Below are positions 2,806-17,082 of a stretch of DNA of 64,000 nt, piece after piece. The stretch's first letter is position 1, and each line of letters begins with the position of its first letter. Under the pieces are notes generated by a model, which was not told the DNA's origin, did not search any database, and saw only the letters and a program-made list of their open reading frames with translations. The position numbers were made by a program, and so were the translations under genes. Origin of the DNA: an uncultured Planctomycetales bacterium (lineage in GTDB: Bacteria; Omnitrophota; Gorgyraeia; Zapsychrales; Fredricksoniimonadaceae); the NCBI GenBank assembly GCA_964572155.1, contig CAZNDZ010000001.1, positions 143,300 to 207,299 of the forward strand, given 5' to 3'.

Positions 2806-4413
2806 GTGTTCAACTCAAAAAAATCTACCCTGATTTGTTTTTTTCTACTCACTGTCCTGTGCGGCATTGTGATTCATTTACCCTATCACAATTTCCAAAG
2901 CTTTGTGTCGCAAGGTGATCATGGCCGTGATTTATACGCGGCGGCGGCTGTTTTACGTGGTGAGATGCCCTACAAAGATTTCTGGTGGGTGTATGGCCCC
3001 CTCATGCCGTATTATTACGGCTTATTCTTTAAAATCTTCGGCATTCATGTGCCTAGCATCTTGCTTGGTAAAATGATCCTCAATATCGGTGCTGGCTTAT
3101 GCATCTTTATGGCTGTCACCCGCTTCTTTTCCCCCATCGCAGGTTTTGTCGCTGGCCTTTGGTTTTTGGTGTATCACGCGGATTTCTTTTTTACCTATAA
3201 TCATGCTGGCGGCATCCTCTTACTCGTCGCTGCCATCTGGATGCATTGGTCTTACATTAAAACACAGCAATTTAAATATGCGGCATTGTCCTTGCTCATC
3301 GTTGGCGCCTTAGGTCTTGTTAAGATCAACTTTGCTATCACAACGCTTATCATGGGTATTTTAACAATCCTGATTACCCGCCGCCTTAATAACAAAAGCA
3401 TTGATACAGGTGAAAAAACATTCTACGCGCTTTCTATATTAGGGTTGCCGTTATTTTGGTTTGGGATTTATAGCATTTTTGTCCAAGGACTCACCATCAA
3501 TGAAATTCGCCAATGCTTACCTTACTTAGGTGGGGATGAACCTTACAATAATTTAGGGCCCCTGCAAACTATCCCGCAATTGATTACGATCATCCTTAAT
3601 AATATCCGCTCAACATGGATTAGTTTTGGGCTTTGTGTGTTGATATTGTTATCCACTATGAAAACATTGCTCGACTTAACAAAATCCAAAGACAAAACCC
3701 TAATGCTCATCATCGGTTACGCACTTTTGTTCTACGCGTTTAACTTGCATGAGTTTATTAAAAGCGGTGTGTTTTATCGGATGTTTTGGTCTCAACCATT
3801 CACCGTCCTTTTAACCTTTATCATGATTGCATCCGCCATCCAAAGCCTTGCCAAGCCCATCCGATTTATCGTGTGGTCTGTATTGTGTGTCATTGCCGCC
3901 ACCTCCGCGTGGCAAACAACAACATTTATCAATTCATATAAAACACCCGCGCATTATTTAGGCAGTAGCCGCGGCCAAGTTTACATCACCAACGACAGCA
4001 ATTGGCTGCAAACGGTGGTACTCACAACCAAGCAATTAAACATCAATTTTAAGAAGGACGAACTATTCTTAGCCTTACCGTATGATTGCCTCTATTACTA
4101 CTTAACCGATAAGAAAACACCGACGCGCCAATTAATCTTTTTTGACCATATTAAAATACCTTTGGAACAAGAAGGCCGCATCATTCAAAGCCTTGAACAA
4201 CAAAAAATTGCAGGTGTATTACTATCAAGCAGACATTCAGCAAAAGAACCTGGGCTTGGCACCATGGGCGTTACCTATTGCCCGATGATGGCGCAATACA
4301 TCAACACCAACTTCACGCCTTACGCCAAAATTGGTGACTGGATTAATGAACCTGGTTGGGCGTGGAATCATGGCACCTATATTTTCAAACGCAAAGAAGT
4401 CCCTCATGAATAA
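2806..4413 (+). CDS. polytopic membrane protein, paralog A of a tandem pair (putative GT-C glycosyltransferase-like)
   Basis: 535 aa; N-terminal TM then conserved QGDHGRDLY..LRGEMPYKDFWWVYGPLMPYY; C-terminal block LALPYDCLYYYLTDKKTPTRQLIFFDHIKI shared with the next gene. Confidence 0.6.
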   Translation: MFNSKKSTLICFFLLTVLCGIVIHLPYHNFQSFVSQGDHGRDLYAAAAVLRGEMPYKDFWWVYGPLMPYYYGLFFKIFGIHVPSILLGKMILNIGAGLCIFMAVTRFFSPIAGFVAGLWFLVYHADFFFTYNHAGGILLLVAAIWMHWSYIKTQQFKYAALSLLIVGALGLVKINFAITTLIMGILTILITRRLNNKSIDTGEKTFYALSILGLPLFWFGIYSIFVQGLTINEIRQCLPYLGGDEPYNNLGPLQTIPQLITIILNNIRSTWISFGLCVLILLSTMKTLLDLTKSKDKTLMLIIGYALLFYAFNLHEFIKSGVFYRMFWSQPFTVLLTFIMIASAIQSLAKPIRFIVWSVLCVIAATSAWQTTTFINSYKTPAHYLGSSRGQVYITNDSNWLQTVVLTTKQLNINFKKDELFLALPYDCLYYYLTDKKTPTRQLIFFDHIKIPLEQEGRIIQSLEQQKIAGVLLSSRHSAKEPGLGTMGVTYCPMMAQYINTNFTPYAKIGDWINEPGWAWNHGTYIFKRKEVPHE

Positions 4414-13416: not shown

Positions 13417-14920
<1,504 letters not shown>

Positions 14921-14978
14921 GAAACGTTAATCGAATTACAAAACTATAACATCCTTTCTTAAAATGCGCAAGTACCCC

Positions 14979-15006
14979 TTGCCTTATTGTGATTATGTTT
15001 TATACT
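14979..15006 (+). promoter_or_regulatory. sigma70-like promoter TTGCCT-16nt-TATACT placed for a leaderless transcript
   Basis: the -10 hexamer ends 6 nt before the ATG at 15013 and no SD precedes it, consistent with leaderless initiation. Confidence 0.3.
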
Positions 15007-15012
15007 TTAACT

Positions 15013-16254
15013 ATGAGACCACGTATCCTAATAGGACTACTTGCAGCAACCACCATTCCTCTCATTGCCTACGCCGGCACCTTAACCATGACTACCTATT
15101 ACCCAGCACCAACCGGTAATTACGACGTCCTAAACGCCAGCTCAATCGGCATCGGCACGGTCACAACCCGAGACAGACTAACTGTCGCTGGCTCTGGAAC
15201 TGGATATGCAGTAATCGGAGGATTAACCGGTTGTGGTTCAAATGTTACTGGTATTCAATTGAATGGCTCAGCGCTTACCTGTAATGACCATAATATGTCT
15301 ATGAATGGCAATAACCTAAGAATAAATAGGCCCAGTACTGGCACCATTATATTTAGACATGATAACAGCACTCAAATGACGCTCGATGCTACTGGAAACC
15401 TCGGTATTGGCATAACACCAACTAGTTTATTGCATGTAAACGGCGCTTCCAACCTTGTTGGTGCTGTAACCATGGGAAGCACTGCCAGTATTGCTGGAGC
15501 TGCAACCATCACAGGAGCTACCACACTTAATGGGGTTACAACGCTCAACAATAGCACAACTGCCAATAGTAATTTTACTGTTGCAGCTGGTGGTTTATCC
15601 GTTAATGCAGGTGTTGCAACCACCTTAAGCGGACCAGCCACCGCAGCAAATGGATTAACCGTTAGCGCAGGTGGTCTTGCAGTTACAGGTGCTACATCAA
15701 TAACTGGCAATACAACCATCACAGGCAATGCAAGCGTGTCTGGCACAACCACCCATACAGGTGCAACAACCTTAACAGGCGGCATTAACGGTGGCGCTAC
15801 TGTTAATACTGGAAATCTTACAGTAACTGTAGGTAATCTTGCTGTTAACGCTGGCAACCTCACGGTTGGCGGCACATCAACATTTACAGGCGCTTCTACA
15901 ATAAATAACAGTCTAACGGTAACTGGCAATGTGTCTGCCAATGGATTTTTCTATTCTTCTGACAAGCGCTTAAAAACACAGGTACAACCCATTTTCGACC
16001 CAATAGAAAAAGTAAAACAGCTCAAAGGTGTCACGTTCCGTTGGAAAAAAGATCGCAAGAAGTCTGTCGGTATCATTGCCCAAGATGTTGAAAAAGTATT
16101 TCCCGAACTTGTCCATACTGACAAACAAGGCATGAAATCTGTCGCATACCCTAACCTCATTGGCCTCTTGATTGAGACCACCAAAGAACAACAAAAACAA
16201 ATCGATGCGCTCAAAAAAGAAGTTGCCCAATTGCGCAAAGAGATAAAAAGGTGA
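15013..16254 (+). CDS. secreted phage tail-fibre-like protein with C-terminal intramolecular-chaperone (peptidase S74) domain
   Basis: signal peptide MRPRILIGLLAATTIPLIAYA|G; long G/T/N/A-rich beta-helix-type repeats (TGATTLTGGINGGATVNTGNLTV...); C-terminal SDKRLK autocleavage motif followed by VGIIAQDVEKVFPELV and a coiled coil. Confidence 0.75.
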   Translation: MRPRILIGLLAATTIPLIAYAGTLTMTTYYPAPTGNYDVLNASSIGIGTVTTRDRLTVAGSGTGYAVIGGLTGCGSNVTGIQLNGSALTCNDHNMSMNGNNLRINRPSTGTIIFRHDNSTQMTLDATGNLGIGITPTSLLHVNGASNLVGAVTMGSTASIAGAATITGATTLNGVTTLNNSTTANSNFTVAAGGLSVNAGVATTLSGPATAANGLTVSAGGLAVTGATSITGNTTITGNASVSGTTTHTGATTLTGGINGGATVNTGNLTVTVGNLAVNAGNLTVGGTSTFTGASTINNSLTVTGNVSANGFFYSSDKRLKTQVQPIFDPIEKVKQLKGVTFRWKKDRKKSVGIIAQDVEKVFPELVHTDKQGMKSVAYPNLIGLLIETTKEQQKQIDALKKEVAQLRKEIKR

Positions 16255-16258
16255 CGAT

Positions 16259-16284
16259 AAAAAGGTGACAGTCACCTTTTTATG
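16259..16284. repeat. REP-like palindrome AAAAAGGTGACAGTCACCTTTTTAT, also an intrinsic-terminator hairpin for the tail-fibre-like gene
   Basis: perfect palindrome with U-run on the plus strand; a partial direct copy AGATAAAAAGGTGAC sits immediately upstream at 16241-16255; inverted partner at 17054-17082. Confidence 0.6.
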
Positions 16285-16290
16285 TTAAAT

Positions 16291-16319
16291 TTGACAAATT
16301 TGCTTTTGTCTTTTAATAT
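16291..16319 (+). promoter_or_regulatory. sigma70-like promoter TTGACA-17nt-TAATAT upstream of the RAYT gene
   Basis: consensus -35 and a good -10 with 17-nt spacer; AGGA SD before the ATG at 16399. Confidence 0.35.
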
Positions 16320-16398
16320 TTAAATGCGCTTTAAATCCCCCTTTAAAGTGCTTTATTTTTAAATCTAAACTCCCCCTTACAAAATCCTAGGAATAAAC

Positions 16399-17058
16399 AT
16401 GCCACGTCGCGCCCGCATTGTTCTACCCGGTTACTTTCATCACGTAACTCAACGAGGAAACTATCAGCAAAATGTATTCTTAAGCAATCAAGATCGAGCA
16501 GTATATTTAAAATACATTGATGAAAATGCTCAAAAATATGGTCTGAACATTTATGCTTTTTGCTTAATGGACAATCACGTACACTTTATTGTGACCCCTA
16601 TAAGCAAAGATTCACTTTCAAATACTTTTCGTGTCGCTCATCAACGATATGCTTTGTATGTAAATAAAAGAGGTCGACAATTGGGGCACCTATGGCAATC
16701 TCGTTTCTACTCCTGCATCTTATTAGGAGAACACATTGCCCGCGCTATTCGTTACGTAGAACGTAACCCAGTACGAGCAGGATTGGTAAATAAACCGGAA
16801 GATTTCTTATGGTCTAGCGCTCGATCACATTTTGGGAAAAGATATAGAATAATATCCTTAACTGATATCCCAAAATATATTACTGTTGAATCTTGGAAGA
16901 AATACCTTACAAGTGAAGATGCGCCTGAAGATTTGCAAGAAATACGAGCTAATACACTTCAAGGAAAAGCTTTTGGAAATGTAAACTCCATTGAAATTCT
17001 AGAGAAACAAATTGATAGAAATTTAGTGTTTTGCCCTCAAGGAAGACCTAAAAGATAA
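16399..17058 (+). CDS. REP-associated tyrosine transposase (RAYT, IS200/IS605-like Y1 HUH transposase)
   Basis: 219 aa; MPRRARIVLPGYFHHVTQRGN, HUH motif NHVHFIV, catalytic-Tyr block RYVERNPVRAGLV. Confidence 0.8.
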   Translation: MPRRARIVLPGYFHHVTQRGNYQQNVFLSNQDRAVYLKYIDENAQKYGLNIYAFCLMDNHVHFIVTPISKDSLSNTFRVAHQRYALYVNKRGRQLGHLWQSRFYSCILLGEHIARAIRYVERNPVRAGLVNKPEDFLWSSARSHFGKRYRIISLTDIPKYITVESWKKYLTSEDAPEDLQEIRANTLQGKAFGNVNSIEILEKQIDRNLVFCPQGRPKR

Positions 17059-17082
17059 AAAGGTGACTGTCACCTTTTTACC
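17054..17082. repeat. REP-like palindrome GATAAAAAGGTGACTGTCACCTTTTTACC, inverted partner of 16259-16284
   Basis: identical to the upstream palindrome except the central base (A vs T), as expected for an inverted copy; overlaps the RAYT stop codon. Confidence 0.6.

Follow-up and report, generated by a model that had tools for sequence, protein, structure and literature searches.

A chromosomal gene for a short secreted protein resembling phage tail fibres, with a Peptidase_S74 domain and a predicted leaderless mRNA, in Omnitrophota

The window analysed here is a 64,000-nt stretch of contig CAZNDZ010000001.1 (assembly GCA_964572155.1, positions 143,300 to 207,299 of the forward strand), deposited for an uncultured Planctomycetales bacterium and placed in Omnitrophota by GTDB. 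All coordinates below are positions in this window. The feature under study, 14979–16254, comprises a promoter-like element and one + strand open reading frame (ORF), whose product ends in a Peptidase_S74 (S74) domain. A first-pass annotation, made from the letters of the sequence, had described it as a stand-alone secreted tail-fibre-like protein on a leaderless transcript. In the reading favoured here, which we consider probable though well short of certain, it is a chromosomal, vertically inherited Omnitrophota gene for a short Sec-exported phage-tail-fibre-like protein, most likely a homotrimeric cell-surface fibre or adhesin.

The locus carries fpg, SLOG, pyrC, pyrB and pyrR on the - strand, followed by the S74 gene on the + strand. 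On its 3' side come, again on the - strand, an rsmI-type methylase gene, glmS, and the genes for L27, a DsbA-like protein and a Peptidase_S11 protein (D-Ala-D-Ala carboxypeptidase). The same slot between pyrR and rsmI-glmS holds the gene in five further genomes or contigs (L002, L003, L004, L005 and L007, the contigs of proteins P0002–P0006), and L002 has two tandem copies. The window and these five loci, with L002 represented by its first copy, form the set of six syntenic loci that was compared. The syntenic orthologues are 39–47% identical overall, keep an intact frame and are 413–559 aa long. Pfam searches on the window neighbours returned the same housekeeping set as in the orthologous loci and no phage genes in the roughly 10 kb that flank the fibre gene on each side. 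Its G+C content, 45.1%, is close to that of the pyr genes (46.7%) and of glmS (45.7%). Two distant relatives that carry the N-terminal tag described below, P0008 and P0032, also lie outside phage structural modules. Titled records with the full architecture come from Candidatus Omnitrophota metagenome-assembled genomes (L009, L010, L024, L031) or from records machine-assigned to "uncultured Planctomycetales". With five further syntenic loci, matching G+C and housekeeping neighbours, the earlier description of a stand-alone, domesticated gene without phage genes nearby holds up well. Judged from this context, the gene is a resident, vertically inherited chromosomal gene and no prophage relic.

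Table 1. Features of the fibre gene and its 3' flank, in window coordinates
Feature	Position	Strand	Basis or remark
-35-like hexamer TTGCCT	14979–14984	+	TTGCCT or TTGCCA in all syntenic orthologues
-10 hexamer TATACT	15001–15006	+	16 nt after the -35 hexamer, 6 nt before the ATG
Start codon ATG and predicted transcription start (A = +1)	15013–15015	+	Homologue N-termini, upstream in-frame stops, promoter geometry
S74 fibre coding sequence	15013–16254	+	413 aa, predicted to be secreted; stop codon at 16252–16254
Predicted Sec-type signal peptide, aa 1–21, MRPRILIGLLAATTIPLIAYA then G	15013–15075	+	Read from sequence
Mature N-terminal tag, aa 22–40, GTLTMTTYYPAPTGNYDVL	15076–15132	+	Candidate anchoring or sorting motif; most conserved segment
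Beta-rich module, aa 41–145, ends in GNLGIGITPTSLLHV (capping-loop-like)	15133–15447	+	Two conserved Cys (C74, C90)
Stalk, aa 146–315, to the cleavage site	15448–15957	+	About 25 hexa/heptapeptide repeats (x-T-x-x-T-G type); periodicity, model
Peptidase_S74 core, aa 316–378, SDKRLK	15958–16146	+	Pfam, conservation, fold
C-terminal long helix of the chaperone domain, aa 379–413	16147–16251	+	Model; presumed trimerising coiled coil
Terminator-like palindrome ATAAAAAGGTGACAGTCACCTTTTTAT	16257–16283	+	Directly 3' of the stop; 12-pair stem, then T run; left REP-like arm of the RAYT insertion
RAYT-like Y1 transposase gene	16399–17058		Pfam Y1_Tnp; NCBIfam REP_Tyr_transpos 78.1 bits, just below the 80-bit cut-off

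The start of the frame differs between sources. The mechanical ORF list opens it at GTG 14989 (421 aa), and P0001, the public gene call for the identical protein, opens it at ATG 14995 (419 aa). Six close relatives begin with MRQR... or MKQR...; a hydrophobic stretch leads from there to AYAG and the tag, and the Met of these relatives aligns to ATG 15013. The equivalent ATG of L003 and L007 has an in-frame stop one codon 5' of it, which leaves no room for a longer form. Because these stops exclude an earlier start codon, the deposited call is probably six codons too long, and the product has 413 aa instead. This product begins with an n-region containing two Arg, a hydrophobic core and A-x-A at -3/-1, after which the mature chain would open with GTLT. 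The signal peptide was read by eye in the window protein and its relatives. It has the make-up of a standard Sec/signal-peptidase-I signal with a predicted cut at AYA/G, and the small-x-A/G cut site is kept in 18 of 19 tag-bearing relatives, in agreement with the Sec signal peptide reported at first pass.

The promoter-like element was tested against the syntenic loci. The two hexamers lie where the first-pass annotation had placed them, and the six nt before the ATG (ttaact) are without a Shine-Dalgarno (SD)-like purine run. The arrangement TTGCCW-16-TATACT-6-ATG is kept exactly in all six syntenic loci; both spacings are invariant and the start codon is ATG in each of them. Among the six loci, the -10 hexamer is identical throughout (mean pairwise identity 100%) and the -35 hexamer nearly so (94%); the value falls to 70% in the six nt before the ATG, 44% in the spacer and 34% further upstream. 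When scanned on both strands of 98 fetched loci, the composite pattern was found once per syntenic orthologue locus and nowhere else. In the window it occurs once, compared with 0.04 expected even when one mismatch is allowed. It also stays with the gene in L003 and L005 despite the genes inserted there after pyrR (a HepT-like gene in L003, two small ORFs in L005). With the -10 hexamer at -12 to -7, position +1 of the canonical spacing coincides exactly with the A of the ATG, so a leaderless mRNA is expected from the 6 nt that separate the hexamer from the start codon. Because the hexamers and the spacings are invariant while the spacer sequence and the upstream DNA have diverged, the leaderless transcript proposed at first pass is strongly supported by this phylogenetic footprint, though not proven, with its start predicted from promoter geometry. 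When the first 50 nt of each predicted leaderless mRNA were folded, the structure was weak, and shuffled sequences gave the same picture (z about 0), which makes this measure uninformative.

Leaderless mRNAs occur in other bacteria, such as that of lambda cI transcribed from PRM and those of many Actinobacteria and Deinococcus genes, in which the -10 box lies about 6–7 nt before the start codon. The fibre gene resembles these cases in that the -10 hexamer ends 6 nt before an ATG which is present in every syntenic orthologue, without an SD sequence. It differs from them in that the transcript start is predicted from geometry and in that the same protein family has members with SD leaders.

The neighbouring gene pyrR, 130 bp away, has a clear SD sequence, GGAAGGA. 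Its own divergent promoter, TTGCGC-17-TATAGT (- strand, 14971–14943), is conserved and stands back to back with the fibre promoter, with the -35 hexamers of the two 7 bp apart. The pyrR leader (14881–14971, -) contains a hairpin, CCAGUUCAGAGAAACUGG, beside the SD sequence, and its match to the Rfam PyrR binding site stays below threshold (28.6 bits versus 54, E = 0.04). Elsewhere in the window, two divergent membrane-protein genes lie 24 bp apart, a YfhO-like gene (736–2781, -) and a PMT_2-like gene with a GTG start (2806–4413, +). The gap between them (2779–2808) holds a palindrome, ATGATATCAT, which reads as an extended -10 element (TGATATCAT) on both strands, and each of these elements ends 7 nt before its start codon. 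By this geometry, the pair may be back-to-back leaderless genes.

The C-terminal part of the fibre protein is its best-defined region. Pfam Peptidase_S74 (PF13884, cut-off 22 bits) matched aa 316–368 over profile positions 1–58 of 58 with 64 bits (E = 1.5e-17). The motif SDKRLK occupies aa 316–321 (nt 15958–15975), with Ser316, Asp317 and Lys321 unchanged in all 79 relatives aligned. The fibre protein was modelled as a monomer. In the AlphaFold model, the confidence (predicted local distance difference test, pLDDT) is 94–98 from about aa 320 to 413 and 96–98 in the helix 379–412. The best match of this domain to a solved structure in Foldseek is the MyRF ICA domain (7dc3; E = 3.8e-4, TM 0.72, 135 columns, 22% identity), followed by the endosialidase chaperone 3gw6. 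A sequence search of PDB found the distal subunit of a T4-like long tail fibre (6f45, E = 7.7e-8), and aa 379–413 align to the equivalent helix of that structure. The serine autocleavage motif and chaperone domain named at first pass are thus borne out by the hidden Markov model score, the invariant Ser/Lys dyad and the matched fold.

The rest of the protein also resembles fibre proteins. In PHROG, 30 families matched at E<=1, and tail proteins make up 20 of the best 25 of these 30; phrog_18186 covers aa 24–409 and phrog_8215 covers aa 34–405, which is nearly the whole mature protein. Foldseek against BFVD gave 330-column matches to cyanophage fibre proteins named "baseplate wedge initiator". 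When cultured phage genomes were searched by tblastn, 1,044 records matched the last third of the protein only, and none covered at least 80% of the query. Sequence and model together confirm that the protein resembles a phage tail fibre with an S74 chaperone/protease domain.

The first-pass annotation had placed about 300 aa of G/T/N/A-rich repeats between the signal peptide and the S74 domain. True repeats account for about 160–170 aa of this region, whereas aa 22–145 (124 aa) form a distinct, conserved tag and module. G, T, N, A and S make up 76% of aa 146–305 in the stalk and 55% of the non-periodic tag and module. Residue autocorrelation in the stalk peaks at lag 6 (z = 4.7), lag 7 (z = 3.2), lag 12 (z = 3.0) and lag 18 (z = 3.2). 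A DNA-level search for tandem repeats found none in the stalk, and the periodicity exists at the protein level only. Short regular beta strands run throughout the modelled stalk, a presumed triple beta-helix. Among the syntenic orthologues, the stalk is the most variable region (23–31% identity, with indels of 49–153 residues), while the tag is 63–100% identical, the S74 region is 46–79% identical and the terminal helix is conserved. A fibre that binds a receptor and keeps both its anchor and its chaperone fixed would be expected to show this pattern of conserved ends and a fast-changing middle.

The mature N-terminus starts with the highly conserved sequence GTLTMTTYYPAPTGNY. Across 12 family members, Y29, Y30, P31, P33, G35 and Y37 of the tag are invariant, and the consensus is small-x-A / G-x-x-T-[LM]-T-T-Y-Y-P-[AS]-P-[TS]-G-N-Y. 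In 18 of the 19 ORFs with the tag, the Tyr-Tyr pair forms residues 8 and 9 counted from the predicted cut. All 15 tag-bearing proteins among the search results are short (317–614 aa) and have a C-terminal SDxxxK. A metagenome scan for YYPAPTGN found the tag also on two small secreted Cys-rich proteins without S74 (L097 2893–3537 and L098 2078–2518), so its passengers comprise S74 fibres of 317–722 aa and small Cys-rich proteins. For the tag, neither Pfam nor NCBIfam yielded a model, a scan of IMG/VR with exact peptide patterns found no contig with relatives of the N-terminal part, and a literature search for the motif string found no paper. Because a fixed mature N-terminus is common to different passengers, the sequences suggest an anchoring or sorting role for the tag. 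A wider proposal is that the invariant mature N-terminus is an undescribed surface-anchoring or sorting signal of Omnitrophota-type bacteria, with the leaderless-promoter fibre gene as one cargo of a new display system; this we regard as a doubtful proposal, to be taken as speculation. In the 199.5-kb contig Ga0105164_10000007, two 722-codon ORFs for fibres with tag and S74 domain lie about 100 kb apart in opposite orientation; these copies are L093 (46697–53170) and L094 (146331–152804), and their ORF excerpts are identical.

The module that follows the tag is not particular to this family. A profile of the N-terminal part (149 positions), searched against 1.84 billion cluster representatives, matched 18,969 proteins at E<=1e-3, and in most of them positions 42–148 recur, up to 45 times, in proteins of 2,000–7,400 aa. 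For this reason the idea that aa 22–145 form a dedicated anchor domain was rejected for aa 41–145, which are one copy of a widespread fibre-shaft unit of about 105 aa. Within the N-terminal 124 mature residues, specificity to the N-terminus is, on this profile evidence, limited to aa 22–40. The beta-rich module is without a matching Pfam model, and the model of tag and module (pLDDT 64.6) gave no significant match in a Foldseek search of PDB. In the carriers P0121–P0265, proteins of up to 7,453 aa, the unit of about 105 aa is bounded by GNVGIGTxxPxxKLxV motifs, and about one third of the top matches that carry it end in the S74 motif.

Secreted fibres with S74 domains have been described in a predatory bacterium. 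The mosaic adhesive trimer (MAT) fibres of Bdellovibrio bacteriovorus have a signal peptide, a conserved N-terminal domain of about 130 aa and a long trimeric beta-helical shaft (Caulton et al. 2024, PMC10769870). The beta-rich domain directly after the signal peptide is common to all 21 MATs, 13 of which have an S74 domain and the rest other tips; cleavage was shown for Bd3182 (PMC10769870). MATs are displayed on the surface of the predator and bind prey glycans, and this work sets an experimental precedent for a predator whose fibres are secreted, processed by S74 and shown on its surface (PMC10769870). Like the S74 MATs, the Omnitrophota protein is encoded by a chromosomal non-phage gene and has a predicted signal peptide, a conserved N-terminal part, a beta-rich shaft presumed to be of the trimer type and a C-terminal S74 domain with SDxxxK. 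In both cases the ends are conserved and the middle is variable, and the bacterium is thought to attach to other cells. The sequences were compared with one Bdellovibrio fibre, the 1127-aa S74 protein of B. bacteriovorus Bd16, by BLASTP alignment. The S74 region is 47% identical to this fibre (aa 300–412, E = 2e-29). The N-terminal parts of these two proteins, which start with SPDSFTYQGRI... there and GTLTMTTYYPAPTGNY here, cannot be aligned (best E = 1.6).

The shaft was compared with those of MATs as well. The capping-loop-like LGIGITPTSLL (aa 130–140) stands against V-G-G/N-pi-x-x-P-x-x-x-L in MATs. Foldseek matches of the monomer models, which are of low to moderate confidence, to the Bd2133 shaft (8ond, E = 0.02–0.09) and to Bd3182 (8onc, 36 columns, 44% identity, E = 1.7) are weak and not significant; like the loop motif, they would agree with a related shaft. 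The present protein is also shorter than MATs (413 aa versus 600–1,100 aa), has no distinct tip domain, comes from another phylum and is encoded by a gene whose geometry predicts a leaderless mRNA. Membership of the MAT family was not assigned, as the N-terminal domain could not be aligned by sequence with the one Bdellovibrio fibre, the protein is under half the size of that fibre and only the S74 region is homologous. To judge from sequence, the protein follows the same overall logic as the S74 group of Bdellovibrio MAT fibres, its closest known system.

With phage fibres and tailspikes (K1F endosialidase CIMCD, 3GW6; T5 pb1, 4UW8; 6F45) the protein shares the S74 domain, the Ser-Lys dyad and a repeat stalk presumed to be beta-helical. 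Unlike them, it has a Sec signal peptide, a non-phage location and no N-terminal virion-attachment domain, and only about its last third aligns to cultured phage proteins by BLAST. The MyRF ICA domain (7DC3) offers, by analogy, a similar trimerise-then-autocleave mechanism, but it belongs to a eukaryotic transcription factor of the endoplasmic reticulum membrane. A trimeric autotransporter adhesin was rejected as a candidate because there is no Pfam match to a YadA-type anchor and the C-terminus is S74.

From these likenesses, the following course can be proposed. Transcription would start at the A of the ATG from a conserved sigma-70-type promoter, TTGCCT-16-TATACT, and a monocistronic leaderless mRNA of about 1.27 kb would end at the hairpin 3' of the gene. 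Translation would be independent of an SD sequence, and the 21-aa signal peptide would direct Sec export and be cut off after AYA. Outside the cytoplasm, three S74 domains (aa 316–413) would associate by way of the long helices and serve as a template on which the stalk folds into an intertwined triple beta-helix. Every chain would then cleave itself at Ser316 via the Ser316/Lys321 dyad and free a 98-aa chaperone fragment. Trimerisation and cleavage are expected from the behaviour of S74 domains in endosialidase, T5 pb1, MyRF and Bd3182, with which the protein shares homology and the catalytic residues. The mature 294-aa chains (aa 22–315) may be held on the cell by the invariant N-terminal tag, and the variable stalk or tip may touch the surface of another cell. 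This would fit the attached, possibly predatory lifestyle proposed for Omnitrophota.

Four other explanations were weighed. An S74 domain on a fibre-like stalk is typical of phage tail fibres, and a mobile-element gene (RAYT) adjoins, as might be seen if the gene were a tail-fibre gene left over from a decayed prophage or tailocin and served no purpose in the cell. Such an origin is extremely improbable: the slot is held in at least five other genomes with the frame intact and the ends conserved at 39–47% protein identity, neither phage genes within about 10 kb nor a deviating G+C mark the gene as foreign, and the RAYT is absent from the orthologous loci. Moreover, the conserved Sec signal peptide is foreign to virion fibres, the N-terminal part has no relative in IMG/VR by exact peptide patterns, and no cultured phage covers more than about one third of the protein. 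The leaderless reading competes with a leadered mRNA that starts further upstream, in which translation begins without an SD sequence at ATG 15013 on an A/U-rich leader, or at ATG 14995 or GTG 14989, and the hexamers are no promoter. Several points weigh on this side. The hexamers match the consensus at 9 of 12 positions, a match that by itself is at chance level (6 promoter-like sites in 2.9 kb versus 5.7 expected). An SD-like sequence was found in roughly 8 of 24 window genes, so its absence is unremarkable alone, and SD-independent initiation on leadered mRNAs must be common. The public gene call P0001 uses ATG 14995, and the distant members L010, L024 and L031 have an SD sequence (GAGG/AAGGA) at normal spacing; in L012, TATACT lies 46 nt upstream. 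Against a leadered mRNA stand the invariance of the hexamers, of the 16-nt spacer length and of the 6-nt distance to the ATG while the bases between and upstream have diverged, the persistence of the arrangement in L003 and L005 despite different upstream neighbours, and the in-frame stops in L003 and L007, which exclude an upstream start codon. In addition, much of the 130 bp to pyrR is taken by the conserved divergent promoter and leader of pyrR. A leadered mRNA is therefore held to be unlikely for the fibre gene. Because L010, L024 and L031 carry ordinary SD leaders, the predicted leaderlessness is specific to this clade and locus.

The function of the protein was weighed in the same way. 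A secreted trimeric polysaccharide depolymerase of the tailspike or endosialidase type, digesting glycans of the host or prey and not acting as a passive adhesin, is suggested by the first description of S74 on endosialidases and its presence on other tailspike depolymerases, by very weak Foldseek matches to phage hyaluronidases and depolymerase tailspikes (E>1), and by the proposal that Omnitrophota degrade prey cell walls (bioRxiv 10.1101/2023.11.21.568195). However, Pfam, NCBIfam and PDB sequence searches found no catalytic domain outside the S74 region, about 170 of the 294 residues of the mature protein are simple repeats of 6–7 residues, and the matches to enzyme folds are not significant, so that this activity is very unlikely. 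The protein could also be a structural part of the bacterium's own envelope or of an appendage, for instance a fibre of its coat or a part associated with pili, and take no part in the recognition of other cells. Small Cys-rich secreted proteins that are otherwise unrelated carry the same tag, which suggests a common destination and not a common ligand; the gene also keeps its position among housekeeping genes. No ligand-binding tip domain was recognised between the stalk and the S74 domain, which counts against the adhesin as well, and the shaft itself was modelled at lower confidence (pLDDT 55–80 in the stalk and 45–65 in the N-terminal module of the monomer). The central region, however, diverges fast and with large indels, which is more typical of proteins that face a variable external partner, and the closest experimentally studied relatives are prey-binding fibres (PMC10769870). 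A purely structural role is accordingly rated as rather improbable, and a cell-surface fibre or adhesin stays the preferred reading.

The 3' end of the gene has been altered by an insertion. An 823-bp insert (16255–17077) lies between the stop codons of the two convergent genes, which abut directly in L004 and L007. An identical palindrome, AAAGGTGACWGTCACCTTT, flanks the RAYT-like gene, at 16261 and at 17059 (17059–17077), and in the fibre gene as well as the methylase gene the closing codons (I-K-R-stop) now come from the outer palindrome arms. The fibre stop codon is spanned by 14 nt duplicated in tandem (GATAAAAAGGTGAC x2, 16242–16269). Because the RAYT is absent from all orthologous loci, it is, from this comparison, a later insertion that is functionally unlinked to the fibre gene. 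The left palindrome with its T run resembles an intrinsic terminator.

Toxin-antitoxin genes are found beside the fibre gene in several relatives: a HepT-like gene in L003 (5582–5902), PhdYeFM/YoeB in L005 (7762–8264), and NTP_transf_2 with a HepT-like gene in L090 (8747–9390). Together with the RAYT in the window, these insertions suggest that small mobile modules land preferentially at the ends of the fibre gene.

A single uninterrupted ORF of 13,416 codons (23676–63926, -) takes up nearly two thirds of the window. Giant ORFs are described as typical of Omnitrophota (PMC10066038; bioRxiv 10.1101/2023.11.21.568195). Taken with the record titles of the relatives, this ORF points to Omnitrophota as the probable source of the window. 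The 13,416-aa product contains no fibre module, no YYPxPxGxY tag and no SDxRxK motif.

Omnitrophota are uncultured, mostly ultra-small bacteria that are suspected of attachment to or predation on other cells, and attention has so far been on their giant proteins and pili. A literature search for Omnitrophota with S74 or tail fibre found nothing, and the two main papers on the phylum (PMC10066038; bioRxiv 10.1101/2023.11.21.568195) make no mention of such fibres. Bacterial S74 proteins annotated as "tail fiber domain-containing" are common, and leaderless mRNAs are well known. New features here are the Omnitrophota lineage, the shortness of the protein, a tag at the N-terminus that had not been described and a promoter whose predicted leaderless geometry is conserved. 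For annotation, the deposited gene start should probably be corrected from 419 to 413 aa. The conserved leaderless promoter makes a sharp and cheap prediction about translation initiation in Omnitrophota. Small, conserved and easy to express, this S74 fibre with its lineage-specific tag lends itself to study as a candidate adhesin for Omnitrophota attachment, and it would extend the MAT fibre idea from Bdellovibrio to a second, unrelated lineage. If the doubtful proposal about the tag were true, it would mean a new display system used by ultra-small cells for attachment to hosts or prey.

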